A stretch of 64,000 bases of DNA from NCBI GenBank assembly GCA_030704615.1, contig CM060732.1, positions 35,340,001-35,404,000 on the forward strand. Direction: 5' to 3'. The translations under genes were made by a program, and so were the position numbers. This DNA is from Takakia lepidozioides. Taxonomy: Eukaryota; Plantae; Bryophyta. The notes under the pieces were generated by a model. It saw nothing but the letters and a program-made list of their open reading frames with translations. It was not told the origin of the DNA and searched no databases. Positions 29,817 to 64,000 of this stretch are shown here, one piece after another (within the stretch, counting starts at the first letter, position 1; each line of letters starts with the position of its first letter).

Positions 29817-29857
29817 TTAGAGTTCAGTACGCGATCGTCCTTGGGATTGGCCTCATC

Positions 29858-38961: not shown

Positions 38962-39278
38962 TGTCAAGTTATTTTACCACTAGTGTGAAACTAGCTAGGA
39001 AATAGTTAGTTTTTACATATTGACATTTGGGATTGGCCCAAGTGTCAATCCAGGGGTCAAGGCAGATTTAGGCCCTGGAGTGGTTATCTTCACGGCAAGC
39101 GCGGGAGGCTCATCTTTCTCGAGTTGAGCCTCACCGCGCCTAGCTATGGCGCCGTAGTGTGGATTCCCCATGGCGTGGGGTGCACTTGGCTTGACTTGTA
39201 TTTGAGTGATGAGGTTATATATGCATGAGTTTATGCTTCAGATTTGTGAGCTTGTGCTTGTATTCTTCTTCTTTATCA
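38962..39278 (+). repeat. Element C terminal repeat A1 (317 bp)
   Basis: Matches 59601-59917 with about 5 transitions. Confidence 0.92.
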
Positions 39279-40789: not shown

Positions 40790-41530
40790 TGGGGCTGTGA
40801 TGGGCTGTCCCTGTGGCCTTGGGGGCTGTGACGGGCTGCACCCTTGGCCTTTGGGGCTGTGAGGGGCTGTGACAGGCCGTGCCTGAGGCCTTTGGGGCTG
40901 TGACGGGCTGTGGGGGGCTGTGACGGGCTGTGATGGGCTGTGAGGGCTGTGACAGCCGTGCCTGAGGCACGGGCTGTGAGGGGCTGTGACAGGCCGTGAG
41001 GCCTTTGGGGCTGTGAGGGGCTGTGCCGGCTGCGCCGGTGCCTTCAGGGTTGTGACGGGCTGTGGCCTTCGGTCTGTGAGGGCCTGTGACGGGCTGCGCC
41101 GGTGGCCTTGGGGCTGTGATGGGCTGTGAGGGGCTGTGCCGTGGCCTTTTGGGGCTATGACAGGCTGTGCCTATGGCCTTTAGGGCTGTGATGGCTGTGA
41201 GGGCTGTGACACGCCGTGCCTGAGGCCTTGGGGCTGACACAGGCTGTGAGGGTGACAGGCTGTGCCCGTGGCCTTTGGGGGCTATGAGGGGCTGTGATAG
41301 GCCTGCCTGAGGCCTTTGGGGCTGTGACGGGCTGTGACGGGCTGTGACAGGCTGCCTGAGGCCTTTGGGGCTGTGACGGGCTGTGTGAGGCACTGTGACA
41401 GGCTGACAGGCTGTGCGGGCTGTGCCCAGTGGCCTGTGGGACTGTGACGGCTGTGACCAGTGAGCTGTGTGGGCCTGTGCTGGTCTGTGTGGCCCGTGTT
41501 GACCTGTGGACGGCCTGTGCTGACTCGTGG
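40790..41530. repeat. Degenerate GGGCTGTGAC-type minisatellite in the 5' leader of element C
   Basis: Dozens of GGCTGTG(A/C) units interspersed with GGCCTTTGGG. Confidence 0.9.
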
Positions 41531-42206
41531 AGGCACTGGTGGACTGCCTAAGGACTGGCATGTGGTCTTGAAGGCCGAATTTTGAAGCTCGTGGAGGGCG
41601 GTTTGAGGAGTATCTTCATGATATTCCCATGGTCATGCAAGTGAGGGAAGAGAGGAGAGAAAGAGAGGAGATGAAGAGTGTTGGGATGAGGGCATGCTGG
41701 GGTTAGGCATTACTTTAGCTTCTCTTCCTCGTAGTTTCCACCCTCTCATTAGGCCAAGACCTTTCCGTAGGTGGAGGCAAGAGTCAGTCCGGGTTTGGGC
41801 TGGCGTGTCCTTGCAGGAGCAACACCGTGGAGTTGTTTTTGGTGTGGGGGAGTTGTCGTTTTGATTTCTTGTGTTTGGATCCCCTCCATACCTACATGCT
41901 TGACTGTGCGCTATGCTAGTTTTGTGTGGGCGCTTGTTTTTATAGGTGATTGGTTCGGATTTGATCACCGGCCAGTCCTAGAGCATGCTGTCGATGGTGA
42001 GGCTGGGGTGATGACCAGCCAGACCATCATTGTTTCTCCTGTGGTGAGGTTGGAGGTGATGACCAGCCAACCATAGGAGTGCTTGCGATGGATGCAGGTA
42101 CAGGTGTAGGCTATGTTAGGAACTTAGTATTCCAAACCATAAGCCGCAACTGGTTCTCTACCCGGTTACCTTGTGGAGAGGGGGTTAAGGACATATTCAT
42201 GACCGG

Positions 42207-44811
42207 TTGATTGTCAACACGGAGGTGCCACTAGTTGCTGGGGACAGTGCCGGTTCGAGCACTAGCGATACTAGTGGGTACACGAGACAAGGTGTGCGGT
42301 TTAGGCCACCTTCACCTCCTGTGTCTTCTACGGAAGGTTCTGATTCAGATTGTGAATTAGGAGGACTCGTACCGGCGGTGCAAGTTGTTTCTTTGCCATT
42401 GTTGTGGGACACAATGGAGGAGATGTATGGAGCTACCAAGGGGCCACGAAGGTACTCTGGGGCGGTGGGCACCATCGAGTTGGATGATTTTATCCAAGAG
42501 TTTGATAGTTGGTGTGATTTGCAGCAAATGCGCAATCCACAACTATTTACGCCTTTCATGGCATGGAAGGGGTTGTTTCAGCACCTTGAGGAGCCGCCTA
42601 TGGATGATTACCATGTTCAGGCGGGGCATGAGGTTGAGATCGAGGAGTGGAGGATGTACTAGTCACCCGACTATGTCTCCATCACTAGGGGCACTAGAGC
42701 CAAGAGGGCAGTGGCTACACCTGCCGCCGGCAGCTTCAGCAAGTAGCAGAGGGACTAGTGGGACTGGTGGTACAGTAGCTACGACGTCCACCCAAGCCAC
42801 TACCGCACCAGCACTAGTACCCGTGCCTGCCTTCAACCCTGTTGTGGAGTTCTTCGAAGAGTTGAGAGGGAACTACCAAGGGGTGAAGACGGAGAAGTTG
42901 CGGAGCTTGCAAGAGTTCCAACGGAAGCCGACCGAGAGCTTGAGGGAGGCTTTCACTCGCATGAGGCGCTTGATAAATGTAACCCAAGGGGTTACGGAAG
43001 CTCAGGCAGTCCAATTCTGGTATGGGATATTGGACAAGGAGCTGAGGAGAAGGTGCGGGATGCAACTCTCCTACAAGCGGCCCAACCCACCTTAGCAAAT
43101 GTGTTTTTGCTGGCAGAGCGGATAGAGCTCAACATGGTGGAGGAACAAGTGGTCATGGTGGGATTTGCTAAGGAGACACCACGGGGTAGTGGTGCTCCTA
43201 GCCAACCACTACCTCAACGTGGTCAAGGCAACAAGGGGGCTCAGGTGAAGCCCAAGGAAGGGTAGAGAGGACCTCAGATGCAGGGGTCTCTCCCTTCATT
43301 TGCTGGCCAACAACGGGCGGATGTGGTGTGCTGGACATGTGGAGGACCCCATGTCAAGAAGGATTGCCTAGAGGGAGGCAAAGGGCCGGCACATGCACAG
43401 CCTGCACAATTGCAGTGTGGGCATTGTGGCAAACATGGGCATGGAGAGGCCCAGTGTTATGGTTTGCATCCTGAGTTGCGCCAAGCCAGTTCCAAGGGAA
43501 CAATGGTGGCCGGGGGCGAGGTGGAGCAGCCCAGAGAGGACGAGGTGGCCAGCCACGAGGGCAGGCCAAGGGCCAGCTCAACATGGCCAAGGACGCGGAG
43601 GTCAGGGTTGACCAAAGCATGGCCAACCGGCTTCAGCAGCTAGAGCAGAGGCTCGCTGCCATGGCTACAGCTCAGGTGGTACCGGCTCTAAGGCCGGATG
43701 GTCCACCTCCTGCTCCTGAGGGAGGAGATATGGGAGGCATGGGATTCATGTGTGGAGTAGCACTACCACTAGTGCAGGTGGAGTCTGCTGCAGCCGTGAC
43801 TCGAGGAGCAGCACGAGTTCCTGAGCCACGAGGTACAGAGGTGGAGTTGGATCCACAGCGTGGGGAGGCAAGCCGTCAGGCTAGGCTTCCTCAGTCATTC
43901 ACATTGGCGGAGACAGTGTCGACGCCATCCATGGCACCTAGTTCTCGCCCGACTGTTACCAGGCGGAGGTTACTATGATTGGGGAGAGCTACACGGGTAG
44001 CACCACTACCTAGTGTTGCCAAGGCTACGTAGCTAGTGTGCTGCTAGGAGCGGCCACATCTGTGTGCCAGGCTCCATTGTTCTCAGCTACCATGATTGCG
44101 ACGCCGGGGGTAAGACCAGCTGAGGTGTTCAGGCTGGCAGCTACACTCTGTGAGAGTGGGGAGGTTACTTCATCTTCTGCGGAGATAGTGGGAGGTGTAG
44201 TGCCGGAGGGATCCTCGGATTTGAGGGTCAAGACTGCCACGGCGGCGCCATGGCAAGCTGCAGCTGCCAGGTTGATGGAGCTGCCAGCTAGGCCAGCCAT
44301 TGAGCGCACCATGGTGACACTTGGAGTTGTCATGTTAGACAACCAGGATGGCATTTTCTGTTTGAGTGGACCGGCAGGCAGAGGTACCGGCCACTGCGGG
44401 TCTTGTTGGACTCGGAGCTCAGCCACTGATGCTGGGCAGAGCTGCTATTGCAGGCTTGGGCTTCACGGAGGCGATATGGAGCCTTGTCCTTTCCAGATAC
44501 AGACGTCTCTGGGAGGATCGGAGCAGGCTCGGGGCATGACACGGCGTGAGTGGCTATCAGACTACGGCCGGATCACCCTATAGATGGCTCAGTGATGCGA
44601 GCCAAGGCCATTGTGACAGACGCGGTCTCATACGATGTCCTGGTTGGTGGGGCAGTGTTGTACCCCATGGACTTCACCCTGGATTTTTGGGAGGCGTCAG
44701 CTTCCTATAGGCCTGCATGGCAGTCAGGGGAGGGCCAACGTGTGCAGCTCCCTGTGACGTTCATAGGAGGAGTTGCGGTTGCCCAGCTAGGCAAGATGCC
44801 AACACTAGCAG
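42207..44811 (+). pseudogene. Element C gag (two CCHC knuckles) and aspartic protease, frameshifted
   Basis: LDDFIQEFDSW, QKPTESLREA-like gag motif, CWTCGGPHVKKDC, CGHCGKHGHGEAQC, LLDSGAQP near 44404, YDVLVG. Confidence 0.8.
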
Positions 44812-45019
44812 CAGGGATGCCTCGGCGTGAGCCTGGTCACGTGAGCGCGTGAGCGCGACTGCGCTCACGCCACGTCACCTTGCGCAAATGCCACGTCACG
44901 GGTCTCAGTCCACGTCATCACACGTGGAGGCCGAGTCACCACGCACCCAGAAAGAAGTGGAGTGTATTCCCGCGGATTGGCACCCTTTACCTTGGACGAC
45001 ATAATAAAAGGCATTGAAT

Positions 45020-45370
45020 AAATGATGGATGAATGTACAGTTGGATGATAAACAGATGGATGAGTTTGAAAAATCTATGTAGATGGATGAATGACGGATG
45101 GATAAGAGTAAAATGGATGAATGTATAATGGATGTTGAGCAATGACAAAAATTCATGACAGGAAGATGCATGACCAAATCTTTTGACGAATGCACAAAGT
45201 ATATGAAATGAGTGTGGAAGGTTTGTGGGTGGATTAAAGAGTACAGAGGATGAATGTACAATGGATGTTGTACAAAGGAAGCTTTCATGAATGGAGCACG
45301 CATGAATACAGTGTAGATGAATGCACAATGGATATGAGAAGAGTCAGGAAGGTTTGTGAGATGGATTCAT
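45020..45370. repeat. Low-complexity ATGGATGA repeats in the MULE subterminal region
   Basis: Many degenerate ATGGATGA/ATGAATG units. Confidence 0.7.
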
Positions 45371-45495
45371 ACATATAGCAATTTAAACGAAAGTTGATTC
45401 TGTGATTATTATTTGTTCTAAAGGAACAACTACGGTAGAGTAAGGGGATTCAACGTTTTCCAGATAATATGAAAATGAATATTAAAAAATACAGT

Positions 45496-48400
45496 TCAGT
45501 CTGACTCAGAGTCAGTACAATGTATCCCCTCTTCCTCTGCATCTAAGTCTAAGTATTTTAGAACACCGGATCCACGCGGATACACCTACGGCTGGCCACT
45601 AAAAAGTCAGGGGATAGGGACTCGGACGCGTGAAGTGCCATTGCTTCGGCATAAACAGGGAGCAGAAAATTGGAAAGGGGGCTGTCGAAAACAGACTCGC
45701 CAGAAATGACTGTATCTCCTGAAGATCCACCGCTGCTTTCCTGAAAGACAGCCTGAAAAAGTTATTACTGTAACTTTGATGTTATCGAGAAATTGAGTAT
45801 GACTCCCAAAGAGGGTTTAGCACTTACTCACATGAAAAGTCGTTGTCGACCTGCTTATCTTCGGGATCGTCATCATTTCGAATATGAATCCGATCAGTCT
45901 GTGTGCCTGAAGTGGAGCCAGACAAAAGGGGAGGAGCACTGTGTTGTAGAGGTCAGAATCACCCTCCATACCAAAAGGCTTCTTCCGCCTGCCTTGCATG
46001 CGTGGTAAGTTGCTCCTGCACCAGACAGGAGAACATAAACAGTTTGGAGGAGGGGATTTAAGCAGATGAAACTGTTGAAAGGAAACCAATTCGGAAGGGA
46101 GAAAACGAACCTGTGGACACAGAAAGATCGACCACCCGTGCAGAGCGGTGGCTGCATGACTCCAGCAGTATTTGCATGAATGCTGGTGACTTTTCCTTTG
46201 CACCTCTCCAGGGAGTGCCATCTGGTCTCTTCAGAGTCTGACTGGACTGCATGAAGTTGTACAAAATGTCATCGACATGGGGCTCATAGGGGGGGTTGAC
46301 GAAACAACCCTGGTCAGAAATCTCAAAGCTGCGGATGGAGGATGGTGTCTTTGATGTGCGAATCCTCCGCAGGCAGATCGCCTCGAACATCCTCGTCTGC
46401 CAAAGATAGCAGGTTAGTGTGGTAAACACAATCTAAAGTGGAAGTGTGTACATCGGCTATTCAGAACTCTGACACCAAAAAACCATGAATCGTTGATGAT
46501 CGGTGTCGATCATAAAACATTCTACTAGAGTGGAGCTGCAGAGAAAATTGAAACTCATGATCAAAGCATAAGCAGAAGGCAGACGGCATACCAGCTGACC
46601 AGGGAAACCCCCTTTCACAAGGTAGAGGCTGTTCACACAATTCCATGTGCGCAAAACTTCAAACCCTGAAGACTTGAGGTATGATGCCAATGCCCGACGA
46701 CTATCATTGTCACATGACTGAAAAAGCAGAAGTGTCCCTGCATCAGAGAGGAAATTGTTACAGAACCCGAATACCCAACTCCAGTAGTTGTCCTCGAATT
46801 TGTTCCACCCTGGCGTCTTGCCCTTTGGAAGAACTTCTGGCACAGCCTGGCCATCCGGGATGTCGAGAATGACAATGTCGGCCGCATAAGTTTTCTGCAC
46901 ACCGCACACGAAGGTGGGACCTGTGCTCACCTGCAACAGACATGTTTTTTATAAGAACGATGGCAAGAATGTTTTCAAAGAACGAGACTGAAATACTGCC
47001 AACGAAACTTCAGAGAAAAAGGAAAGAAAGTGGAATTCTCACCAGATTGAGGAATGAGATTATTTGTCCCAGGTAGGGGATGGCACCCCAGTGTATCCTC
47101 TCTTTCGACTCTGCATCATCGAAAGCCAACCCTCATTAACAATTTTCATCTCTCCTGCTGAATCAGAACGGGAAGGGTGTGGCTTGGCATCGAACACGCA
47201 CTGAAGAGTGCGGGTATATCTTCCAGCACTAAAGTCCTGCCCACTCTCCATCTCCTTTTCATTCTCCTTCCCCTTGTCCTTTTCCTTCTCTTTGGACTTG
47301 TCTTTGTCCTTGGCTTTGCTGGTGAGATGGCTATGACATCAACAGCCTTGTCTTTTGGTTTGCGGCCCGCCTTCTTTCCCTTCTGCGGCGTTCCCTGAGC
47401 ATCAGGCTCCTTGGCAGCCAAGGTTGCTATGTTTCGTTGATACTCTTCGTCAGTCAAAGGCGCCAGCATCTCAGCGTTATTGTTCAAGTATTTCATATGC
47501 TGTTCTTGAAAGGTCGTGTGCTCAGGTGGGCAGTCAAGGTACCACCCACAGTCTCTGAAGTGAGAAGGACTCCAGTCCTTCAATATCCCTGCAGTATACA
47601 TGGTTGGATCGTTTGCAGGGTCCGACCACATGTCAAGATAGTCGGGAATTCCGCTCAGGTGATTTCCTTCCATAAGCACATATTTCGTGTACCTGAAAAA
47701 AGGAGATAAATCCCAACCCACAAAAGCGCTCAGTGAGTAAGATGCAAGTAGAACAGAAAGAATAAAACATGGATTGAAATGGCTCTGACAACTGCTCCAA
47801 GGACCTTTCAGGACCACACTACTGCTCCAGATATGAATGTCGTCAACGCCATTCAGAACATTCCATTCCATGACACTGTAATACATCCTAATCCAGGTGA
47901 ATGCAAATAAGCGATTAGAAATGACACAGACATAGAAGTGAATGTCGTCAACGACATTCAAGAATGAAGCCAAATTATTACTGAAATGAAGCAAAATCAC
48001 AGGATGGAAATAAAAAATTGAGTAAGGAACCATCCAGGAAAACTCAATGCACATTCATAACGAACCTATCACTGAGGACCTCACAACATCACTGTATGTG
48101 AATGGCGTCAACGCCATTCACAAAAATACAAAAAGAAACCAATTACTTAGCTCCCCAATCCATGAAATTGAATTTGTCGTTTTGAATAATACAGACACAG
48201 CTGTGAATGTCGTCAACGACATTCACTTTGGATTTCTTAAAACAGAGCTTATCAAGCCTCCATATTCATCGCAAGAGGAAAAAACAATGCAGAACAACTG
48301 AATGTCTGCATTGACATTCAGCAAAATGAAGTGATCAACCCTCATGTAACCTCTATGGACATTACAAAAATTTAAATAACCTTGAGGACCACACAACAAC

Positions 48401-50464
48401 TCCGTGTGAATGTCGTCAACGCCATTCAAGGACATTATCAATTCTAATCAGGGACAATATAATTGCACCCTTAGATCCTAACCAGGTGAATTCATATACT
48501 CGCTTAAGAATGACTCAGACAAAGAAGTGAATGTCGTCAACGACATTCAATCTGGATCTAAGATTGCAATCCATATGAAGCCACAATTTTTCCCAAAAAA
48601 ACAGTAGAGTTCAAGTATGACATTTCACCTGTACACAACTCGCATCATGGCCCACTCTCCTCCAACCTGACTGTCAAAGTCGTTGGACCGTAAAATGTTA
48701 CCATCTTTGGAGAACTCCCGGAAAAAACAGTATCTCCAGGTGAGACCTCTCCACTTCCTTATGTATGCCTCCAATGACATTTGGGGAGGGGAAACAATCG
48801 CAATGTTCAGGTCCTTCAAAGTCTGATCCAGCACAATGACGGCGCGCTTTTCGAGCTGCAAATAGTATATTTGTCAGAATTGCAAAAAAGAACACATCAC
48901 ATACTTGAAGAGAAGAAAACAGCATGTTCGAATACACACCTGACTCCAAAATGTAGCCTTGTGGAGCCAGTTATCAAACACCAAATCACTGATTCCTTCC
49001 ACCTTTGTGCCAGGCTGTATGGTGCTCTTTGGGAACTGATTCAAGTCCTTTACTGTTTGATCTGAGTTCCATATCTCCAGCCACCTTATTTTTGTTTGTG
49101 GGTCGACCATCGATATGGCCAGCCGGTGCAATTTCTCCTGCTGCATCTCCGGATGCACATGCTTGTCATAGTGTGTTTTGATCTGCTGAAGGAACTCAGG
49201 ACCAAGTCCAGGATCTACTATTCTAAGCTGCTTTCCGAAGGCTGACATCAATTTGGTTCTTCGCATCTCAAACTCCTTCTTTATTGCAGCTTCCACACCC
49301 TTTGATGTCCTTAGTTCCTCTGGTGTAGTGCGGTAATATTCGGATTTTCCCTTCTCAGCTGCCTCTGCCAGTTCTTGCTGCATTCATTCAAGTAGTGATT
49401 AGCTCCGAAGGGACTCTAAACATGTATTCGAAAAGTAAACAGATTACAGACTCGGGCTTACCGCATACATGTACTCCAGAAACGCCTCTCGTGTCAAAGA
49501 ATACCAAGTGCCTGCAGCTTCCTGTTTCGCACTTCTTGATGATATTGGGTGGTAGTACTGTCCGAAAATCATCCAGCTTCATCAGACCAATCCTCTGAAT
49601 TCGGAATAGTGTGTGAACCAAGCTTGTTGTCACATGCGATTTCTCTGTCGATCTGCAAAAACATTGAAAACATTGCATTCCTTAACACTGTTTTTTTGAG
49701 GATCAACAAGACACTACAGAGGGAATCAAATCTCCTGGATGACTTACTTGTTCACGTCGTGCATAGCTGTAAGAAGCCTAGCGATGTCGTTTCCTGATCC
49801 AAAACCATTGCCTCCACAGCAACATGCTTGTCTTTGTCTTTCGAATGGTGTTTCTGAATGTATCCCATCCATGCCAGCAATCGGTGGTTGCCGTCCCAGA
49901 CGTAGAACATGTGGTTGCAAAATTGCTGGTGTTTCTTTCCCATCATGAGGCCCAGCTCGAACTCCTCATTGGCATCTTTCCAGCACTCATCCCAGTTATC
50001 ACTGATCTCTGGAGAAACTAATGTGCTTTTCCCATTTATATCCGTCAGTGACACATAAAAAACTTGTGCACCAAGTCTATATCCATGCACAAAATCACTC
50101 TCCAATTTTGTTATGTCATGGGAAAGAGGTGGACGCACAACAGGCATTGATATCATCCGGCACAGAGGTATGTCCAGACGCCCTCCAGATACGAGCATGT
50201 CCCTTATAACCTCCTGAGAGTTTACCTTCTGGAATGACATGAGTTCTTTCACCTTGTCAAGGTAGTGCACTTCGGATTCATCTGCTTCATCTGTATTCTC
50301 TGAGCTTTTTGCGGACTCGTCCCCATCTCCAGATCCTTTCCCCTCTGATCCTGTAGGCTTCGACCTCACAGTTTTCTGCACGATGCCATTCAGTTCTGAC
50401 TAAGTGATTTGCAAATAGTGAATGGCGGTAACGACAATCACTCTGTATCAAGGAAACTCACCAT
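45496..50464 (-). CDS. Spliced MULE accessory gene: ParB/Srx-like N-terminal domain plus C-terminal beta-class N4C/N6A DNA methyltransferase-like domain (some apparent frameshifts)
   Basis: ATG|GTGAGT at 50464. FYVWDGNHRLLAW in exon 50399-49748. ADIVILDIPDG...FLSDAGTLLLF in exon 46930-46592. EKSPAFMQILLESCS...VVDLSVSTG in exon 46396-46111, spliced to ATYHACKAGGR...MEGD from 46015. Introns are GT-AG. Confidence 0.72.
47834..48549. repeat. Array of seven 22-bp palindromes TGAATG(T/G)CGT-CA-ACG(A/C)CATTCA in intron 47693-48628
   Basis: Copies start at 47834, 47939, 48099, 48204, 48299 (variant core), 48407 and 48528; spacers are diverged. Confidence 0.9.
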
Positions 50465-50581
50465 GAATGGTGTGAAAGAATTCAGCACAATCTACAGCAA
50501 AGCCGAGACTTATGATTCTTCAACAGACGCAGTAAAGATACTCTGGCGATAGCAAGGTTACTCGATGATGAGGAAGTCACA

Positions 50582-53500
50582 ATGGATTTGCATTGTTCTG
50601 GACAATAAATGGCTCCATCTTTTGGAGAAAGAGGTTTACGATCTCCTGATGAGACTCTCATATCAGCCAGTGGAGAGTGCGAGAGTACTTGGAGAGCTCG
50701 GCGAAAGTCCCTTGGGTCATATGTGACGCCCGGGACTGCTGCTTCGGTCGTTGAAGACAAGAGGGAGGTGGTGGTGAAAAAAGAAACAGACTTCCTCCAC
50801 TCCAATCGTTGAGCTTTCGGATTCTTCCGATGATGACATAAGTGAAATTCCAAATCCAGTCCTTCCTACTGTGGTTGCAGAAGCTGATGAAGAAGAGATT
50901 TGTAGTGTCATTCCAAAATTGCGGGCGATGGGAGGAATGGCTGGATTCAAAGTGAGTTGCGGGGAATTGATTGGGAATCTTTGAAGCAGGTGCCTGTGAA
51001 GTTCTTGCCGGAGACTTTTGATGGCGATATCCTATTCGAGCTGCCTCCTCCTCCGCGAGTTGAGGTGTAACAATCATGATGCATGGAATGGACAAGAAAC
51101 ACGACGGGCACCCGTGGTGCAGAACAAAAACATCCAATATTCAGAATGATGACAAGCTTGTTTTCAGGAGGACAGTTTGCAATGGACACCTTAGGTGTGA
51201 TAATTTGAATTGCAGACACTTTCTTCAGTCTGGAGTTCATAATCAAAGCGAATGGGAGGGTCTGGCGAGAATCCATTTCAGCCTGGGACTGCCCCTCCAC
51301 CGGCAAACACTTTCGTCTGCAAATTCTGCAAACTTGTGCCATCCTGCTTGGCGCTCTGCGGAGCAAGAATGTACTATGTTGTCCACCGTTTGAATACAAT
51401 GACGAGAGCTTGTGTGCATTTTGGATTCCATAACCATCCTGTCTCGAAGGGGGATTACAGGGAGAGTGTTGAGACAGTATCGAGGTTGATCAAACAGGAG
51501 TTCGGGAGAAACCCATCCGCAACAACATCTGCAATTGCTTGGCGCAAAAGTCCTTCTTGGAAAGCCATATTTTGAGTGAAGGAGATTCTGTGGGGACTAA
51601 ACTTGACGGTGCAGCATTGGACCTGGTCATGGATCATTTCTCCACTTTAAGTTCACCTAACATTCGGCATCAGATCAATGCATTGAGAATGGGCTCTGGG
51701 ATCAGAGGCTACATAGACAATATTTTGGAATTGAAACGACTGAGCAAGTACGATTACATCCAGGACAATGTATTCCCAGGTCAAGGTGCCATCAAAGTTT
51801 TTCTTTTCAAAATGTCGACTGTTGGGGAGGGCAGTGGGGTTAGCCTCGTGAAGCGGATGCAGAAGACTGGGGACTTGCAGAACTGTTTTCTTATGTTTGA
51901 TCATGTGAAACGAGTGAAGGATTGGACGACAATGGCTTGTCATGTCTACGATCCAGTGTACCAACGAGTTATGACAATTGCAGTTTGTGACATGCAATCC
52001 GAGGATACGGAATCCCAGAAGCTCATGTGGAATTCCCTGATACGTGTCATGGGCTGCCATGGGCTGCCATCTCCAAATTTCGCAGGTTTCATGGCGGATA
52101 GTGCTCAAGCAAATTTCAATGCTATTCGTATTGTCTTCGGATCGGGCGACCCAAAAGTGCCTATGCCAGGAAGAGAGCGTACATGTCTATTCCATTGGAC
52201 ACAATCTCTGGAAAAACATACAAGTCGGACATCAAACCAGAGATGCAGACTCAGCACCGTAAATTGTGCAAAGAGTACAAAGATGCTAGAACAATGAAGG
52301 AGGCGGACACTTTGTTCCAGACAATTCGTGCCTGGTGGTTCTCTTCTGGAGCTGCATCACTTGAGAGTATGAGAGCATTGGAAGATTGGCTGGCGTTTTG
52401 GCACTTCCGGTATAGACAGTGGGGAGCAGCCATGACAATGGTACGAGGCTTCTATTTCATGCTTTATTCATACATTTGCTTTCCATATTTTTTGCTTTCT
52501 TTCTTGTTTGTTTCCTGTGCACTATTCTGAAGTGTGGTTATCCTCTTTGCAGAACATGTCCATTGAGGAAATGGCAGACATGCCATCTTGCAATTTGGCA
52601 GAAACTGTGCACAATGCATGGTTGCAGCAGTCTGGGAAACGAGGTCGGGATTTGTATGTGGCAACAACAGATGATTTGATACGTGCCTTGCAACAACAAA
52701 CCCGATACCGTGATTTCTTACGAGGTGGGGTTGGTGGCAAGGGTCCGGACAAATCGGAGTTGATGTGCGTGCTGCAAACAGATCTGGGGATCCAATCAAG
52801 ATAGCACGGGCGGTGAGCATGTATGCCCAGGGAACGCCACTTGTTTCTAGAGTTCCACATCTTGAAGGGGAGGAGAGATTCGGCTCCTGTAAGAGGAAAT
52901 TGAACACTCCACCTGGTTCGGATTCAGATTCCCACAGGGCAGACCGTGATAACTTCTCGAAGCCTCGTGTTCCCCTGCATGACAGCTCCGTGTCCGGAAC
53001 CTCCATTGTGGAGGAACCTCCAACACGACGGCAAGCTCCAGCATCAAACCGTGCCACTGAAATGGTGCAGGAGAGAAACAACCCCCTTGATGTGCTTGAG
53101 TCCGCATGCCCCGACCACGTTTGGCACATAGAACGCACAAGTGTCGGGTCTCGTGTGAAATGTACAGCGATCAGGGCAACTAATTTCGAGAAGTGCACTT
53201 CATCTATATCCAGAGGTGGTGCCCGAACTCCTGCTCCGACTTTCACGGGCTTGATGCGTCCATACGGTCAACCAGAAGCCAAGAACCACAAGTTCTGGTT
53301 CTGCGCAGATGATTGTGCCAGATGTGTGCATGGAACTGTGCGTCCTTCCGTAGTGATGAAGCCATCTCCTCCAACCGTTTGGCCCGTGAAGGTGGGAACA
53401 CATCTCAGCTTTCAGGAGATTGAAATGCTGGAGGAGGCAGGTTTTTCCCTTGCGAGACAACCCCAACTCCATGCATGTGCTACTACTCCTGCGTCCTCCC

Positions 53501-53937
53501 GGGTCCCCCCGGCAAATCCTGACTTGTGGCCAACCAAACGAGATGGAAAGCTCGTTCGGCGTTTCCCTCCAACCGCTGAACACTTTGGCAAAGTGGAGTC
53601 CGCAAGAATGCTCCAAGCTCGTGTTGGAAGCACCACGGAAGTACCCGATCCAGGATATGGTCGGGTATTCACAATCATCACTTCCACATCTGCTGTTCAT
53701 GACAGGACCTACGACATCACGGTTTCCAATTTCCCCAATTGCACATGTCCTGATTTTGTGAATATGCTATCAACCAGTTTGGGCAAGAGAGGTAAATTCA
53801 TACCCTGCAAACATTTGTATTTCATATTTTTGAGGAGGATGGTTTGCGATCCCAAACGTGACAACTTCATTCACCAGGCCACTATGAGTTTCAACGAGGT
53901 CGATACTCTTTTGCAGCGGGATACAACACATGGGTAG
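50582..53937 (+). pseudogene. MULE transposase: acidic N-terminus, GCM-like Cys-rich domain, DDE core, SWIM zinc finger; intron about 52441-52552; frameshifted
   Basis: FLMFDHVKR, FMADSAQANFNAI...CLFHW (the MULE D...CxxH signature), CNLAETVH, CTCPDF...PCKH. Start codon uncertain. Confidence 0.82.
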
Positions 53938-54859
53938 CATGAACTATGTAATGTGGTATGTGGATGACCATGATTTGAAATGTGTAATTCACATCAATTC
54001 GTCGGCTGTGCAATGATATGGCCTCCAACTATACGGAGTGAGGTCTGAGTGACAACTTTTAGGTAGTGCACATTTGTCATTGCACCGTTCGAAGTCTACA
54101 TGTCTTGCTGTCGCTATGCACTACAATCATCTTTTGAAGATGATCATAACTCTCATTGTTATTTGAGGAGGGAGGAAGTCTTCTCGTGGCAGCCTTTATG
54201 GCGCACACTTTGTGAGGATATTTTGTCGTCTTCGTAATTGTAAAAGTGAAACAAACATTTGTAATTGCACAATGTTGGATGCTGCAATTGTAGGCCTCAA
54301 CGCTCGTCTTGATTCTATTTAGGCAAGATTCCCTGCATTAATTCCACGGTCATAGGACCATCCACGGTTATAGGCGGCGCATGTTAATGCTGACGTGGCA
54401 GTTGACGGACAGTGCCACGTCATCATTTACCGCACATCAGCATGCTGACATGACGCTCACGCCACGTCAGCATGTGTGCAGGCTCACGCCACGTCACTCC
54501 TGCGTGAGCGTACGCTCGCGCGCTCACGTGCAACGCTCACGCCATTGCGTCGTTGCACTAGCAGCATTCACAGCGGCAGTGAGTTGGCCTAGAGAGTTGC
54601 TTGGGGCAACGCTCATCAGAGGATTACCACCTCCAGAGAGCAGGATGACATGTATGGTATGGCGGAGTTGCCTACCATGGTTGCTCAGACTCCATTGGGG
54701 GCACGAGCACGGATTTGCATCGGATTGCTGATCGACGAGTGCAACAAGCCTGGGTGGAGGCTTTTGTACCGTCAAGATGAGGAGAGTGCGGGGATTGCAC
54801 CAGGACCACCTCAGTTTCTCCATTGGATACCACACCTATTGTGTGGCAGGTATCCGGAT

Positions 54860-55800
54860 GAAGGCATTTGTCTTCTAAACTTGTTTGGCGGGATCAGCAC
54901 CGGATTGGCTGTTGTGTTACAGGCAGGTGTATGAGTTGGGCGTTATCTGTATGTGGAGAGGGAGACTGCATGTCGCGTTTCACTTTGCCATGTTGCTCAT
55001 GGTGCAGCGGTACCCTAATTTTTGTCGGTGTCTGCAATTCGTGGATTAAGCAGGCCTTGCCAGCAGACATTTCGTTGCTGGGGGGCGCATGATTTGGAGC
55101 GGGTTGGCTCCATTGATTTGTAGTGGCAGTTTGGCCCTGCCAAGGGCATCATCAGCCGGCATGGCAATGATGGATTGCGAGACTCGAGGTCGGGTCTGTT
55201 TTGGGAGATGGTGCGGGTTTTGCGCCACTTGCAGCTTCATCAAGCTGTATCTCCAGCATACATCTTGGAGAATGTGCCACTGATGGGCGATTCTCGGGCC
55301 AGGGTGATGGCCAGTGTGCATCAAGTCGGTTGTGGCTTGGGTCAGCAGTGTTGCTAGATGCAGCTACAGTGGGGTCACGGGCTCATCGTCCACGCTATGG
55401 TGGACTAACTTGATGCCACCCGCACTGCTCAAGCGTGCATTTGATGGGGTGCAGTGGCCAGCACATCTCACAGTGGATAGCATTCTGGACACAGGGAGGC
55501 AGTCTCAACATATGAGACACAATAACCGTTCGCCTTTGGCAGTGGTCAACAAGGTGGGTCAACCACGAGCAGCATTACCCACACTGCTCAGCTTCCCAGG
55601 ATCGCATGCTTTCCGGGATAGTGGACCTGGCCTCCTATGGGATGCTCAGTTGCAGCAGTTAGTGGAGCCTAATGCTGACGAGCGTGAGCGGGCAATGGGT
55701 TTTACCACTGGTACCACGGCGGTGTCTCTCTTTCTGAGGCATCACGTCATCAAGTGTTGGGGCAAGCAATGGATCTCAATTGCTTGACCTGGATTATCAG
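54860..55800 (+). pseudogene. DNMT3-like cytosine-5 DNA methyltransferase domain within element C pol
   Basis: Motif I LLNLFGGISTG, IV WPCQG (55132), RSGLFWEMVRVL, VI YILENV, VIII SRAHRPR.WWTNL, IX ERERAMGF and X VLGQAMD, in the correct order across frameshifts. Confidence 0.88.
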
Positions 55801-56159
55801 CTTGGCTCTGCTGAGCAACGCAGAGTGCGGAGTACACTTCCCTCGATGGTCTCTCTGCCTACCGAGACGGTACAGGCAGTGAGTGGGGGCGAGCATGTGA
55901 GGACCACGGGGTGCATGCATCCATGGCACACGTGGGAGGTGCTCGAGGTTCAGAGGGAGTTGGCAGCCAAGGCGGCTGTGATGATGAGGTTGGGGATTCT
56001 TCTCGGGTTGAGGAGGTCCTCAAGGATGAGATGATGGGGCAGGGATGAGGCCTTGTCATTGACTGAGCAGGCATGGAGTACTGCTCAAGAGGTTGCAACA
56101 TAGCAACCACTGGACGCGTCCTCTACCTCTAAGCCCACTGGACTTAAGGTTGCAGTTAC

Positions 56160-58980
56160 GGAGGACAATTGGGAGCCTGACATTGGACCCATTGTCACCG
56201 GAGGAGAGAGACGACGTATACGGCGGTTCCTGAGGGCTTACAGGAATTGCTTTGCCTTCAGTTTGAAAGACTTGGGAGCACTGAAGGGTCAAGAGATCCG
56301 TATTGAGTTGGCCACTGACACGCCAATCTTTCGGAGACCCTATAGATACAGTGACATGGAGAGGTCTTTGATTCAGATGAGGACTCAAGATCTCTGGGAG
56401 GCAGGTTTGGTGGAGCTCTTTGGTGGAGAGTATGCTTCAGCCACAGTGATGCCAGCCAAGAAGGATGTCTATGCAATTGGACGGAGAGACGTATGTGCGG
56501 TGATTACCGGCCTGTAAATCGTCAGACCAAGTCCGATAAGTATGCCATGCCAACACCAGAGGAGATCTTTGATGCCATCGGGCATGCTAAGGCCTTTAGC
56601 ACTTTGGATTTACGATCCGGATATCACCAGTTGCCAATCAAGGAGGCGGACAAGCAGAAGACGGCATTCTGGGGGATCAATGAGCACGGCAAGGATTGCC
56701 TATATCAGTGGCGGTTCTTACCATTTGGGCTTAAGAATGCTCCTGCAGAGTTTCAGAGAGTCATGGAGGATTCTAGCAGGGGTGGACTTTGCTCGGTGCT
56801 ACATAGATGACATCATCATCTTTAGTGTTACGATGGAGGAGCATGAGAGACCCTTCAGGTGGTATTGGAGCGCTTGAGAGCGCACGGATTGAAGTTGCAT
56901 CCGGGGAAGTGCAAGTTTTTCCACAACCAGATTGAGTATCTGGGTCACATGATATATCCTGGAGGATTGGGGATACAGCAGACTAAGGTAGAGGCCATTG
57001 CACAAATTCCACGCCCCACGGATGTGAGCCGAGTTCGAGCTTTCATGGGGTTGGCAAACTATTATAGACGGTTTGTCAAGGGATTTAGTACCATTGCAAA
57101 GGCTCTAACCAAGCTGACCAAGGTGGACCAAGAGTGGCAGTGGGAAGATGAGCAGGAACGAGCTTTTCAAGAGCTCAAGACGAGGTTGACCTCGGCGCCT
57201 ATCCTCACACAGGTGGATGATGAGGGAAGAGAGTTCGTAGTGGCTTATGCTAGCCGCTCGAACAACGCTGCAGAGGCTAAGTACAGCTCATATGAGGGAG
57301 AGTGCTTAGCTGCAGTGTGGGCCGTGACACACTTCAGGTGCTATCTATACGACAATCTTTTCACCCTTGTCACGGATCACCAGCCACTCAAGTGGTTGAT
57401 GGAGTCAGACAAGCTTACGGGGAAGCTTGCACGGTGGGCACTCATACTCCAGGAGTATGACTTTCAGGTTTTGCATCGACCGGGTTTGGTCAATCGGGAT
57501 GCGGATGGATTGAGTCGCAATCCATGCATGAGCCAGCAGGATGACACTGGAGCTCGTGGCATGGTGAGACGGACGAGGAGATGGTGCCGGGATGGCACGC
57601 ATCTGCATTTTTGTGTATCTTGGCATCGGGGAGGTCAGGTTGGACCTACAACAGGGATGACTGTAGACGGAGTGTCTGAGGACCCTGAGGCTAGTGATGA
57701 GTCAGGTGGTGCCAGAGATATACATGAGGATTTTTGTGTTGGACTACCTCCGCACGGGAGACACGCAGCCACTGTGACTGCCAGGGAGAGGGATCGGATC
57801 CTGCAACGAGCCAAGAGGTTCAAGTGGGAGGGGATACACCTACTTCGAGTGTAGGAGGATGGTCGGGTGAGGATTGTGCCTCACCCCACACAGCGTGCAC
57901 GGTTAGTGCGCATGCCCATGAGGAGTTGGGGCATTTTGGAGTGCGACGCACTCACAGTTTACTGCAGGGGCAGTATTGGTGGCGTGGTATGCATACAGAG
58001 GTGCAACAGTTCGTGGCTAGGTGCATGGTGTGTGACAGGGTGCGTGCTTCATTCAAAACCCCTACACCACAGTTGCATCCTTTACCAATCATGGGATTGG
58101 GCTACAAGTGGAGTCTTGACTTCGCAGGGCCGTTGCCACTGACTATGCGCCACCACAGATATGTGTTGGTGATGGTGAGCACTTCTCCAAGTGGATTGAG
58201 TTGGTTCCATTGCCTGACAAGGCTAGTGAGGGGGCTGCGTATGCATTCTTGGATCGTGTGCTTAGCCGATTTGGTGCTCCAGCTGAGGTACTCACGGACC
58301 AAGGGAGAGAGTTCTTGGGGGAGTTTCAGGCTTTGTGTGATAAAGCCTTGATAGACCACCGCACCACTTCTCGGGATCATCCTGAGGCCAATGGCTTAGC
58401 AGAGAGAGTTGTTCAGACGGTGAAGAGGGGTTTGCGCAAGTATGGCTTGCAGAAGGGACACCTAGGAGATTGGGATCTTCAGGTTCCTTGGTTAGCCATG
58501 GGCTACAGGTTCAGCAAACAAGCATCACTTGCCTCTTCTCACCATATTTTCCTTCTCTTTGGCCGAGAGCCGGATTTGCCTGCAGCCATTCATAGGGACA
58601 CTGCTCAAGTCCTTAACCTTGACGATCCGGATGTGTGGGTACGTGCATGTGATCAGCGTGTAGAGTTGTTCAAGAAAGTCATGCCCATGGCTTTTGAGAA
58701 CCTTGCCATTGCACAGCACCGTGATACGTTGAGGTATGCCACTATACGTGGTGATATCATCCTGGGGTTCGGAGGTTTAGCCCTGGTGACTATGTTTATT
58801 TGCAGCAGACTGCTCCTACGACTCTGGATGTTACTGCAGGGCGTGTTATTCTGAGGGTTCGAGAGGTGTTGCCCAGGGGTCCTGATCTTGGAGGGTCGGG
58901 GATGGCATGACTTGGAAGGACCATGTGCGTAATTGTGCGCCATGTCACCTTCCCAATGTCGATGGCAGAGTTGACCCAAA
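56160..58980 (+). pseudogene. Element C RT, RNase H (N-terminal part deleted) and integrase
   Basis: [77 protein letters not shown]. Confidence 0.92.
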
Positions 58981-59008
58981 CTTGGCAGTGGTACCTGCAG
59001 GTTTGAGG

Positions 59009-59152
59009 TGCATGCTCTGTGGGTCTGCCAAAGGGGCAGCCACCATGCTGGTGTGTGATCGATGCTCAAGGGGTTGACATATGGGATGCTTGACACCACC
59101 TCTTGAGAAGGTTCCTTACGGAGATTGGTTGTGTCCACACTGCTTGGGATAG
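59009..59152 (+). pseudogene. PHD finger at the element C integrase C-terminus
   Basis: CMLC...MLVCDRCSRG*HMGCLTPPLEKVPYGDWLCPHC gives the C4HC3 pattern; premature TGA at 59075. Confidence 0.88.
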
Positions 59153-59409
59153 TGGCAGTGGACATGACTGGAGGCAGCTAACAAGACATGGAGGCCAAGC
59201 TCATAGGAGTCAATACATGAGATCCCAAGCTCAAGTCACATGTTGCAAGACGGCGACTAACGATGGGGCAACTCTTGCACCCGGCCTCTTGATCTATCGA
59301 GTTTGAGTGCAGTAGGGATAGTGGTGGAGGACTTATTGAGGCTATGGTCACTATCACATCTTGTGGCTATTTGGACTTAGAGGGACCTAAGCACCAGCTA
59401 GGGGGCGAT

Positions 59410-60106
59410 TGTGTGGACAAGTGACTGCCATAGTGGGCAGCATAGTGGTAGCCTAGTGACTGACTAGTTGTAGCCTAGTGGTTGGACTAGTGGCTGGACT
59501 AGTGGTGGACTAGTGGTATACTAGTGTGTGGTGTGCACATGTGTTGTGTGGTTTTGGACAGCGATGTAGTTTGTGTAGCAATATGTATGCGCACGACAGC
59601 TGTCAAGTTATTTTACCACTAGTGTGAAACTAGCTAGGAAATAGCTAGCTTTTACATATTGACATTTGGGATTGGCCCAAGTGTCAATCCAGGGGTCAAG
59701 GCAGATTTAGGCCCTGGAGTGGTTATCTTCACGGCAAGCACGGGAGGCTCATCTTTCTCGAGTTGAGCCTCACCGCGCCTAGCTATGGCGCCGTAGTGTG
59801 GATTCTCCATGGCGTGGGGTGCACTTGGCTTGACTTGTATTTGAGTGATGAGGTTATATATGCATGAGTTTATGCTTCAGATTTGTGAGCTCGTGCTTGT
59901 ATTCTTCTTCTTTATCATTGTGTGGACTAGTGACTGCCATAGTGGGCAGCATAGTGGCAGCCTAGTGACTGACTAGTTGTAGCCTAGTGGTTGGACTAGT
60001 GGCTGGACTAGTGGTGGACTAGTGGTATACTAGTGTGTGGTGTGCACATGTGTTGTGTGGTTTTGGACAGCGATGTAGTTGTGTAGCGATATGTATGCGC
60101 ATGACA
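59410..60106 (+). repeat. Element C 3' composite terminal repeat: B1 (59410-59598), A2 (59601-59917), B2 (59919-60106)
   Basis: B1 and B2 differ at about 5 positions; A2 matches A1; PPT-like AGGGGGCGA precedes B1. Confidence 0.92.
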
Positions 60107-60110
60107 CAGT

Positions 60111-60714
60111 CAAGGTCGCACGCAAGTTGTCAAAATTCGGCAGCATAAACGGAAGCTGGACGTGCTCCTTATCGAAGATTTCGCATCTTTATCTCTGCAA
60201 CTCTCTCTCTATCATTCTCTCCAAACGTTGCAGTGAACTTGGACATGAACGCTTCAAAATAGTATAGTAAATGCGAATTTTTCTCTAATAGCGGGGCAAA
60301 CCAAGATAGGGCAGTGCCTGATAGAAAGGTGCCTACGAATCCCACTTGAATACCTTCATCATAGTAGCGTTGTGGATATAGTCGTAGGAACAATCGTACT
60401 TGTTGAACAAAACCGCGAAATCTTGATCTCGTCCTATCAAATTTCTCGGGCATGCTGACCTTAGGTTCCCTTGTAATCTGTTGAAGATTTGGAGGAACCG
60501 TTGCAGTAGGATTTGTTGTAGTAGGGACTCGTAAGGTTGAAGATCCATTGTTCGACTCCTTCAACTCTGAAATTTGTTGTTGCAAATTGTTGAGAGCATT
60601 GCCAAGGTCTTGAGACTGATCAACTTGTAGTTGGGCAGTAGAGGCACGAAGTTCTTGCATCTGGAGCTGAAGACTCTGCAACGTGGCAACCATTTCCGCA
60701 AATGTGTCTTCCAT
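60111..60714 (-). pseudogene. Element A gag N-terminal part
   Basis: Coiled-coil start followed by EPKVSMPEKFDRTRSRFRGFVQQ...LSGTALSWF (sushi/PEG10-type gag). Confidence 0.88.
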
Positions 60715-61059: not shown

Positions 61060-64000
61060 AAGTCTTCATACCCGAGAAATTTGACGGGACGAGATCAAGA
61101 TTTCGCGGTTTTGTTCAATAAGTACAATTGTTCTTACGACTACATCCACAACGTTACCCTGATGAAGGTATTCAAGTAGGATTCGTGGGCACCCTTCTAT
61201 CAGGCACTGCCCTATCTTGGTTTGCACCGCTATTAGAGAAAAATTTGCATTCACTATACTATTTTAAAGCGTTCATGTCCGAGTTCACTGCAACGTTTGG
61301 AGAGAATGATAGAGAGAGAGTTGCAGAGACAAAGATGTGAAATCTTCCACAAGGAGCACGTCCAGCTTTCGTTTATGATGTCGAATTTTGACAATTTGCG
61401 TACGACCTCGACTGGAATGAGAAGAGTCTCATTAGTCAGTTTCAATGTGGCCTAAAAGAGGATGTAAAAGATTTGTTACTGACAATGCCAAATGTGAATA
61501 CATTGAGCGAATTCATCACCCAAGTCATTGCATGCGATAATCGTTTGTTCGAAAGACGTCAAGAGAAACGATCTGGATGGTCGACGACGCACCATGCCGC
61601 TGCTACTACGGCACCAAACATAACGATCCATCAAACATCCGGTAATGATCCTATGCAGATTGATGCTGTCCGATTCAAACCATTGACGCCACAAGAAAAA
61701 CATAAATGACGCTCGAATGGATTATGCATTTATTGCGGAGAAGACGATCACATATCATTAAACTGCCCCAACAAGAGAAGATTCAAAGCTCAGGGCACAA
61801 CTCAAGTGTTCGATACGAGGAGGTCGAAAAACGAAGATGTCCAGTTACAGTAGGGACCATGCGGCTAGACACCCCAAATTCCTCAAAAAAAAAAGGTCTT
61901 TTTCTACCTCCAGACCCTGTACCTTGTTTCACAGTTCCAGTAAAGATCAGGATGCAAAATCGAGATATCTCCATAGAAGCACTTTTGGACTCGGGCGCTT
62001 CAGCATGTTTTATTGACAAAGATTTTGCGAAACAACATAATTTAACGCTCGTAAAGAAGAAATTTTCGGCCCCTCTTGAAGTCATCGATGGACGACCGTT
62101 AGCATCAGGAAATATTGACCATGAAAGTCGACCCCTTGAAGTGAAGCTTAATAATCAAGCATCACAAATTGTTTTCAATGTCATCCAGTCTCCAACGGAT
62201 CTTGTGATCCTTGGACTTCCCTGGTTTGTACTTCATAATCCTGACATCGACTGGTGATCATGAAAATTTTTGGCAGGACACAAATGCAAAAGTACCAAAG
62301 GTATTCAACCTCTGTTTCTTAGAGCTAGAGCCTTCATGAAAGCTACGAAGAAAGACGTAACATTTGCACTTTATGCAAATCCAATCAAAACCACAACAGA
62401 CCAAGGTACTTCGACATTACCTACTCAATATCAAGATTTTAAGGATGTTTTTGAGAAGAAAAATGCAGACATGTTGCCAGAACATCAATCTTATGATTGT
62501 GAAATTGAGTTACAAGAAGGAGTTCAACCATCATTCGGCCCAATCTATAATTTATCTCAGACAGAGCTAGCTGCTTTACGCGAATACATTGATGAAAATT
62601 TGTCAAAGAATTTCATTTGACATTCGAAATCACCCGTGAGAGCACCTATCTTATTTGTGAAGAAGAAAGACGAATCGTTACGCATGTGTGTGGACTATCG
62701 TGGGCTCAACAAAGTCACTATAAAAAATCGTTACCTACTACCGCTGATTTTCAGACTCCTCGAATAACTTGGACGAGCAATTTTTTTTACAAAGATCGAC
62801 TTGAGTTCACTGTCTATACCGATCACAAAAACCTCAAGTATTTTATGAGTGCTCGTGTTTTGAATCGACGTCAAGTGAGATGGAGTATGTCACTAGCAAG
62901 GTTTGATTTTGTTATTACATACCGTCCCGGACATCTTCAAGGAAATCCAGATGTTCTTTCTCGACGATCGTATCTTGCGCCAAAAGAAGATGATGCAACT
63001 TTTGACCAACAGAAATCCATCATCTTGAAACGAACAATTCTCCAATTGAATATCTTATTCATGTCCACCTATGACGATGTAGAAATCATAAAGGAGATTC
63101 AGGAAGCACTGAAGAGCGACCAATTTGCGACGACACTATGAAGTCAACTAAATCGACCTCGAGACAACCCACATGTTACAAACGACTTTGAATTCAAAGA
63201 TGGCTTACTTTATTTCAAGGGACTTCTCTATGTACCTCCAGGACTTACACGACTTCGAATTCTTCAAACATGTCATGATCTTCCGGCTGCAAGAGATTTC
63301 GGTTTTAACAAAACAATGGAATTGATATCCAGGAACTATTGGTGGCCGCAGGTGTGGAAACTCGAGATTTTTTTTGTAAAATCTTGTGACACCTATGCTA
63401 GGGCGAAGGGACCATGACATCGACGTTACGGCCTTCTTCAACCAATACCCATTCCCAAAAGTCCATGGTCGTCCTTGTCTATGGACTTTATTACGGAACT
63501 TCCAATTTCTAAGACCACCGACTCAATCCTTGTTATTGTGGATTGTTTTACGAAAATGGCACATTTCATTCCATGTAATAAGACGGTTACTGGCGAGGAA
63601 ACTGTAAGACTCTTCCTCAATAATATGTACCATATTCATGGACTCCCGAAGGACATCGTATTTGATCGAGGACCACATTTCATATCAAATTTGTGGAGGG
63701 GATTATTTCACATATTGGATACTAAGATCAACCTCTCTACAGCTAATCATCCACAAACTAATGGTCAAACCGAACGCGTAAACCAGATTTTGGAGCAATA
63801 TCTTCGTTGTACGATAAATTATCACCAAGATAATTGGACGGACTTTTTGCCATTAGCTGAGTTTGCCTACAACAACACTATACATTCTTTAACCAAGCAA
63901 ACTCCATTTTTCTCCAATTATGGTCATCATCCTCGAGCAAACCCTTTCCACATGAAAACTGTTGGAGCCCTGCTACAGAAAACCTTGCTACTTATCTTGC
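61060..64000 (+). mobile_element. Element D: second degenerate copy of the element A family (gag, PR, deleted RT/RH, IN), running off the window
   Basis: Reverse-complement similarity to A coding regions; LLDSGAS; jump from RT KIDL to RNase H VYTDHKNL near 62805; many stops. Confidence 0.9.

Follow-up and report, generated by a model that had tools for sequence, protein, structure and literature searches.

Since 2018 it has been an open question why some retrotransposons encode a DNA methyltransferase, in part owing to known hosts that are difficult to manipulate. A methyltransferase within a Gypsy element was found published for one alga only, as KnitGypsy-Dnmt3 of Klebsormidium nitens. According to the text of that description (PMC5890265), the element combines Gypsy domains, a Dnmt3 domain and DIRS-like repeats, and the domain is unrearranged, intron-less and under purifying selection. 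It is placed in the Pol ORF, and the text mentions no PHD finger, target duplication, priming sites or junction palindrome. Note that the comparison made here uses this text description only, and that the figures may show the domain order and the element ends. SymbioDIRS-Dnmt3, from the same text (PMC5890265), is also a retroelement with a DNA methyltransferase but has a different class of reverse transcriptase (RT). The DAM-LTRs and EpiLTRs, as summarized in a preprint (bioRxiv 10.64898/2026.05.21.726589), are retroelements with DNA methyltransferases, some of which also have a chromatin reader; the EpiLTR enzymes are sister to DNMT4 and are accompanied by a chromodomain. The same preprint mentions “streptophytes (Gypsy-DNMT3)”.

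Here we analyze a Ty3/Gypsy element found in a 64,000-nucleotide stretch of a Takakia lepidozioides contig (CM060732.1), designated below as “the window”. It has Gypsy domains, a Dnmt3-type domain and DIRS-like repeats in common with KnitGypsy-Dnmt3, so that the kinship in kind with charophyte retrotransposon DNMTs drawn in the original prediction holds. Its domain is likewise unrearranged, intron-less and, as judged from sequence comparisons, under purifying selection. In contrast to the algal element, the domain is found at the end of the gag-protease ORF and a PHD finger is present; in contrast to the EpiLTRs, the enzyme is a DNMT3 and the reader a PHD finger. In our literature search, which missed most subscription papers, no report was found of a Gypsy-DNMT3 element from land plants or chlorophytes, of the conserved stop codon, or of the replication model discussed below. 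Novel are the occurrence in land plants and chlorophytes, the placement of the enzyme at Gag level together with a probable leaky stop, and the likely permuted LTRs.

Architecture and state of the element

The element occupies positions 38962–60106 (21 kb) and is split by a 9.7-kb MULE. All features given below for the element itself, the MULE apart, are on the plus strand. From 5′ to 3′, it consists of repeat A1 (317 bp, beginning TGTCAAG; 38962–39278), a non-coding leader of ∼3.1 kb that contains tandem repeats of 10–49 bp (40791–41531) and gave no match in an Rfam search, gag with CCHC-like knuckles and an aspartyl protease (42414–44811; 57% identity to Marchantia Mp4g09160), the MULE, the DNMT domain (54860–55800), a stop codon (56101), RT and RNase H (56104–57460), integrase with an H2C2 finger and an rve core (57860–58950), and a PHD finger with one internal stop (59009–59143; PF00628, E=4e-12). 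Downstream of the PHD finger are a polypurine tract (59396–59408), repeat B1 (190 bp, GACA at its end; 59409–59598), the dinucleotide GC, repeat A2 (59601–59917) and repeat B2 (189 bp, TGACA at its end; 59918–60106).

The gag-PR-RT-RH-INT order and the DDE integrase are those of Gypsy elements, and the TG..CA termini (TGTCA at the 5′ end and TGACA at the 3′ end), the 4-bp target duplication and the polypurine tract are those of LTR elements. The duplication, CAGT, is located at 38958–38961 on the left and 60107–60110 on the right, and a paralogous host element (61062–62568, minus strand), in which the site is empty, has it as a single copy. An identical LTR at each end is not found; the layout is A...B-GC-A-B. 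A conventional LTR pair was rejected on the grounds that B is missing from the 5′ end and that the empty site fixes the boundaries. The plain terminal repeats claimed originally were therefore replaced by split direct repeats. The count of about 5 changes in 317 bp was accurate, with exactly 5 substitutions between A1 and A2 (1.6%). B2 differs from B1 by 4 substitutions and 1 gap.

The window copy is dead, because the MULE splits ORF1, ∼7 premature stops are present and the first catalytic motif of RNase H is taken out by an in-frame deletion near 57203. Fairly recent activity, as proposed originally, fits the low divergence of the repeats, but this copy itself is no longer intact. The MULE (44812–54555) has short imperfect terminal inverted repeats and a 9-bp target duplication, CACTAGCAG, at 44803–44811 and 54556–54564. 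Its removal had been said to restore the reading frame across the insertion site; the MULE indeed keeps the register of this frame, but a further break occurs near 54603.

The whole copy has ∼34 frameshifts, mainly losses of single bases, including 8 in the gag-protease region (with 3 stops) and 9 in the core DNMT domain (with 1 stop). Across 18 related loci 135 stops were counted versus 33 frameshifts, whereas the same regions of the window copy have 13 frameshifts versus 1 stop (Fisher p=5e-8; p=0.004 for RT-RH alone, the region for which the related loci were not preselected). Due to this excess of frameshifts, most of those in the window copy are probably assembly errors in repeats. The observed/expected ratio of CpG is 0.45–0.60 in the element and 0.44 in the host F-box gene described below, and this similarity makes the ratio uninformative on self-methylation.

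The methyltransferase domain

As originally predicted, the C5-methyltransferase motifs are found in order between the protease upstream and RT downstream. They are spread across shifting frames from 54881 to 55774 in the canonical, unpermuted (DNMT3) order: motif I, LFGG (54881–54892); IV, PCQ (55135–55143); VI, ENV (55268–55276); VIII, AHRPR (from 55381); IX, ERERAMGF (55680–55703); and X, GQAMD (55760–55774). A frameshift-aware alignment, with X placed at the breaks, recovers LNLFGG, VWPCQ, ILENV, AHRP, ERERAMGF and LGQAMD. One substitution in the window copy directly precedes WPCQ.

The largest single-frame piece of the domain matched PF00145 with E=0.0012, under the Pfam cut-off; fragments scored 18.7 and 18.3 bits, and the curated cut-off is 22. 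Intact relatives that are 70–72% identical to the window domain exceed this cut-off. One of them, P0015 (70% identity over 302 residues), was compared to solved structures and gave DNMT3A first (E=6e-12), followed by DRM-type enzymes (1e-8 to 2e-4) and HhaI (4e-3). Its predicted model (pLDDT 84) was matched to DNMT3A/B by Foldseek (E∼1e-18), with DNMT3 entries in all 33 rows listed. By way of this relative, the window domain is assigned to the DNMT3 type and not to DRM, with DNMT3A/B as the nearest solved relatives, and the DNMT3-like wording noticed in the original prediction is borne out by both sequence and fold.

Human DNMT3A/B and the plant host DNMT3, as outlined in PMC6453930, are alike to this domain in fold and motif order. 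Differences are that elements of the window type are without DUF3444, PWWP and ADD and share 20–23% identity with the human domains. The two features of plant host DNMT3, a C-terminal DUF3444 and a stand-alone gene, are absent from the window domain.

ORF organization and the conserved stop codon

The DNMT had been described as embedded in a Gypsy polyprotein. It does belong to a Gypsy element, but it closes the gag-protease ORF in front of a conserved stop (56101) that separates it from RT-RNase H-integrase-PHD. In the window this stop reads TAG CAA CCA (56101–56109), between ORF1 (gag-PR-DNMT) and ORF2 and in frame with both. To survey the stop, 64 metagenome loci were used, 41 of which extend to the RT start; these 41 include duplicates of the same insertion and represent about two families besides that of the window. 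TAR-CAA-CYN is present in 38 of the 41 at a fixed position, 16 codons 5′ of the RT start, with TAG in 29 and TAA in 9. The ORF1 end in one surveyed family resembles the end of a named Sphagnum protein, and the named Marchantia ORFs terminate 92 residues past motif X. No stop is present in P0061, which represents an unnamed sister clade and has PR-DNMT-RT-RH-INT as a single ORF.

UAG-CARYYA has been described as the type I readthrough signal of plant viruses (PMC5382211, in the portion consulted), and the window stop context fits it exactly. Most related loci have CAACCC, which is one base off CARYYA and is followed by ATG; a strict match to CARYYA occurs in only 4 of the 41 loci. This ATG is missing in the window and in L023. 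When sequences 3′ of the stop were folded, no structure common to the three families examined was found. Since the in-frame TAR-CAA-CYN stop is conserved, RT-RNase H-integrase-PHD is likely made by readthrough. Reinitiation at the stop is possible because of the ATG that follows CAACCC in most related loci, and splicing is possible as well. We expect, with reasonable confidence, that readthrough would keep Pol scarce and that the methyltransferase would be made 1:1 with Gag; large amounts of the enzyme would then likely be packed into the particles.

Repeats, priming sites and element ends

Full A...BAB layouts were found in the window and in L042, the latter with a target duplication of AAGG and a junction of TGACA-GC-TGTCA. 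L049 has B-A-B at its 3′ end and L005 has B-GC-A; B followed by A is present in L005, L049 and L031, and B alone ends L016, L018, L030 and L050. The 3′ ends with B alone (4 of 8) fit one-LTR circles, and fit recombination between B1 and B2 equally well. A polypurine tract was found 5′ of B1 in 8 of 8 elements examined. Of five elements with both flanks available, target duplications are exact in four, and the fifth has 3 of 4 letters matching. L066, a distant relative of algal-type layout, terminates in GCACGACAGCTG, which is the same junction as in the window; this single case suggests that the junction site is old.

The primer-binding position immediately 3′ of A1 (39279–39294) has no initial TGG, and therefore does not match the CCA end of a tRNA. 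Its 16 nt are exactly complementary to 39108–39123, the predicted self-primer within A1; the best of 300 control positions reached 8 nt. In L042/L035 and in L050 the letters differ but the complementarity is retained, and pairing between A and the primer site was obtained by folding in 5 of 5 chosen leaders. Note that an exact complement of at least 9 nt is present in only 9 of the 16 loci that have A1. Tf1/Sushi, Tcn1 and TAR likewise have a primer site complementary to their own 5′ sequence, but their LTR pairs are ordinary, and in the cited text they are described without a methyltransferase (PMC6317226).

The seam between A2 and B2 in the window, L042 and L049 joins the boundaries of the primer site and the polypurine tract with 0–1 extra base. 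From these features, A...B-GC-A-B is likely a permuted LTR that was integrated from a circle cut at GACA-GC-TGTC (59595–59604), the predicted internal integrase cut site. In L032/L034, an A end with ∼10 nt of the primer site is joined to B. This would suit an end-joined circle, but the arrangement is ambiguous because the region also contains an inverted piece of another copy. DIRS and Ngaro elements have a tyrosine recombinase and make no target duplication; the window element has an rve integrase and a 4-bp duplication, and no recombinase family was matched among 94 ORFs scanned.

Relatives, distribution and selection

A search with the C-terminal DNMT piece gave 51 proteins, of which the named ones are from Marchantia, Calypogeia, Riccia and Sphagnum. 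The domains of Marchantia and Calypogeia are 71–72% identical to that of the window. One Marchantia cluster has 18 members, including five gag-PR-DNMT ORFs of 1278–1281 residues; all eight motifs checked are present in four of these, and the fifth deviates at motif X. A profile search gave 101 long proteins, the named ones belonging to five chlorophyte genera (Monoraphidium, Haematococcus, Cymbomonas, Tetradesmus and Hariotina), and a full HMMER scan gave 586 50%-clusters at E<=1e-30. None of the named proteins obtained was from Klebsormidium. The chlorophyte-type order is mainly RT-RH-DNMT-INT-PHD (84 of 107 proteins mapped). In a set of 168 proteins (the best 150 plus 18 cluster members), 119 have another retroelement domain, 45 have DNMT only and 4 have neither; the host companion domain DUF3444 was found in none of the 45 DNMT-only top matches when these were scanned. 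The lineage is thus an old green-plant Ty3/Gypsy lineage, as judged from these sequence matches, spanning liverworts, mosses and chlorophytes. The claim that it persists in a land plant holds as to the moss-like host, but the window element is no lone survivor. This range turns what looked like an oddity of Klebsormidium into an old lineage of green plants, and retroelement copies can be among the genes counted as DNMT3 when bryophytes are annotated.

From a DNA sequencing run of an organism that has this stretch, 57,363 contigs map to 54300–60300, with dozens of variants at sites within the DNMT domain; contig depths were not treated as copy numbers. These variant contigs indicate that other family members carry the domain, as do the metagenome loci, and its absence from the rest of the family, considered in the original prediction, was not observed. 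One run that we guessed to be RNA gave 25 contigs, mainly 90–95% alike, and is uninformative on expression. Scans of GTDB with the DNMT alignment gave 29 pattern matches, none of which was confirmed; in viral scans, all methyltransferase matches were weak, and a single match to the RT region was obtained. L066 (JBAVTE010000030.1), a contig with a DNMT retroelement of algal type, was assigned to a bacterial MAG, in which it is probably eukaryotic contamination.

For the DNMT domain, dN/dS is 0.08–0.18 between families, where dS approaches saturation and one pair could not be computed; values of 0.56–0.86 within a family match the expectation for decayed copies. The catalytic Cys is kept in 34 of 35 listed motif-IV variants in one layout and in all eight of the eight commonest in the other. 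On this basis, the domain is under purifying selection. Trees were built with FastTree from 134 sequences having both domains and were midpoint-rooted; host DNMT3 and Klebsormidium sequences were left out, as were 114 domains without usable RT-RH. The 12 elements with DNMT before RT, six of which come from two clusters, form one clade with support of 0.995 in the DNMT tree and 1.0 in the RT-RH tree. Distances of the two domains correlate (Mantel r=0.73, 0 of 500 permutations), and by these comparisons the DNMT domain is co-inherited with RT.

Further domains occur in some relatives. In many algal-type elements (P0050, residues ∼1700–1881, and its relatives), PHD is followed by an additional C-terminal domain (RT-RH-DNMT-INT-PHD plus this domain in 43 of 107 mapped), in which DPWAGTG and VVTSPWF are suggestive of an amino-methyltransferase; if so, these would be dual-methyltransferase PHD elements, parallel to the EpiLTRs. 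In P0275, the same DNMT family adjoins a Copia-type gag domain, possibly due to transfer to another retroelement class or to a chimera.

Proposed replication route, function and alternatives

Transcription would begin within A1, and reverse transcription would be primed by the 5′ end of the RNA itself in the style of Tf1/Sushi, a step in which we have good confidence by analogy. Given priming at the self-primer site and the polypurine tract, standard two-jump reverse transcription is predicted to yield a cDNA in which B-GC-A is the true LTR. The cDNA ends would join to give a two-LTR circle, generating the A2|B2 seam, with the base 5′ of the primer site next to the base 3′ of the polypurine tract. 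Integrase may then cut 3′ of CA on both strands of GACA-GC-TGTC, so that the circle inserts as A...BAB with TG..CA ends and a 4-bp duplication; we lean towards this step with slightly better than even confidence. At IS3/IS911 circle junctions, a DDE enzyme likewise cleaves a palindrome formed where two element ends meet. The same is described for retroviral two-LTR circles, where HIV-1 integrase cuts the palindromic junction (PMC1905944, as excerpted). In contrast to both, the window element has its predicted cut site inside the LTR; cutting at this site would serve as its regular mode of insertion and would produce permuted LTRs, which standard LTR finders are expected to misread. No description of an LTR retrotransposon integrating from a circle via an internal cut site was found in the literature searched.

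Circle integration predicts two equal junctions, yet B was found upstream of A in 0 of 15 5′ ends (14 distinct insertions), and this one-sided cutting is not accounted for by it. A split-repeat route resembling that of tyrosine-recombinase elements, in which the B1-A2 junction templates both ends without a standard two-LTR cDNA, could account for the missing B-A 5′ ends, and the layout of KnitGypsy-Dnmt3 was called DIRS-like in the cited text (de Mendoza 2018). We consider it distinctly unlikely, in that the polypurine tract abuts B1 and the self-priming site abuts A1 as standard LTR priming requires, the A2|B2 seam joins exactly these two boundaries, and the ORFs scanned gave no recombinase. 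As to the origin of the domain, host DNMT3 genes do exist in bryophytes (PMC6453930, in the part seen), from which this copy or its family could have picked up a fragment in recent times as a passenger. This is extremely improbable given that the same domain is at the same position in liverworts and Sphagnum, that it has no introns, that DUF3444 is lacking from the DNMT-only matches and other retroelement domains are borne by most of the nearest proteins, and that the domain is selected and co-inherited with RT as described above.

Of the roles considered, methylation of cDNA inside the particle is the likeliest, and the placement of DNMT in the Gag ORF fits it. A packaged enzyme may methylate the element's cDNA before insertion, a proposal that we rate just short of an even chance and that is analogous to the cDNA methylation suggested by de Mendoza et al. 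for DIRS-Dnmt3 (PMC5890265, as far as its text goes). In the same text, SymbioDIRS-Dnmt3 domains methylate CG in yeast, and no methylation was obtained with the KnitGypsy Dnmt3 domain, a result that its authors deem inconclusive (PMC5890265). The negative yeast test could also suit a DNMT that acts at or after integration together with integrase-PHD, on the new copy or the target chromatin, or that serves in DNA binding and not in catalysis; its position in the Pol of chlorophyte-type relatives, after RNase H and before integrase, points the same way, and many of these relatives have EC in place of the PC of motif IV and some alter motif I. Such a role is rather unlikely for the bryophyte clade, in which DNMT sits in the Gag ORF, apart from integrase, and the intact ORFs retain FGG, GWPCQ, ENV and RxR. 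The nearest solved PHD fingers to that of the window are those of CHD4, KDM5B, PHF12, KDM5A, ATXR5 and PHF21A. Several of these are readers of unmethylated H3K4. By analogy, we give even chances to the view that the finger directs integrase to nucleosomes without H3K4 methylation.

Overall, we hold with modest confidence to a combination of readthrough, integration from a circle, a packaged DNMT that would methylate cDNA, and an old green-plant lineage. A bolder version, which we regard as doubtful, is that a green-plant Gypsy clade, from algal-type to moss elements, abandoned linear integration for a circle opened by its DDE integrase at an intra-LTR palindrome. Equally doubtful is its further part, in which DNMT3 was moved before a leaky stop in the bryophyte branch and packaged at Gag levels, such that copies are pre-methylated; this methylation could conceivably also determine which junction is cut. 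In the genetic model Marchantia polymorpha, full-length gag-PR-DNMT ORFs are already listed among the hypothetical proteins of the annotation, and a met1 mutant derepresses transposons; the role of a retroelement methyltransferase is therefore directly testable there.

Genomic surroundings

Genes of land-plant type had been noted around the element. The intronless F-box gene at 12259–13557 gave 8 matches, the four named ones being from Ceratodon, Physcomitrium (two) and Sphagnum (42–48%), and streptophytes are commonest in all of the Atlas clusters listed (n=10). By this one gene, the host is likely a moss that is distant from Ceratodon, Physcomitrium and Sphagnum, and algal flanking genes, which the original prediction had allowed for, were not seen.

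The DNMT element sits inside another Gypsy element (36073–38961 and 60107–60459), a second copy of which, ∼90% identical and in opposite orientation, is located just downstream (61062–64000). A second gene, made up of several exons, is found in the interior of the MULE (45950–50400, minus strand). It has a DGNHR stretch like that of ParB, and its C-terminal region presumably resembles a permuted N6-adenine/N4-cytosine methyltransferase by motif reading. Its three best Atlas matches are N6_N4_Mtase clusters (0.85–0.87), which should be considered a lead only; Pfam and PDB searches gave no match, and NCBIfam gave a weak, unrelated response-regulator match. If this reading is true, a DNA transposon with an amino-methyltransferase is nested in a DNMT3 retrotransposon.

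Positions 29150–35930 are occupied by a Gypsy element of chromovirus type, which has a chromodomain and ordinary LTRs; its CpG observed/expected ratio of 0.89 is above that of its neighbors. Positions 1–1983 have a series of frameshifted transposase-like ORFs, hAT-like by eye and without a Pfam match. At 6126–11112 there is a UDP-glycosyltransferase gene, or a pseudogene of one, that includes a duplicated segment of 1.6 kb and a LINE-like fragment of RT. A fragment that we take by motif to be a phosphoglucomutase-like exon is found at 17753–18025, and a 236-bp tandem array containing 41-bp subrepeats at 4012–4726.
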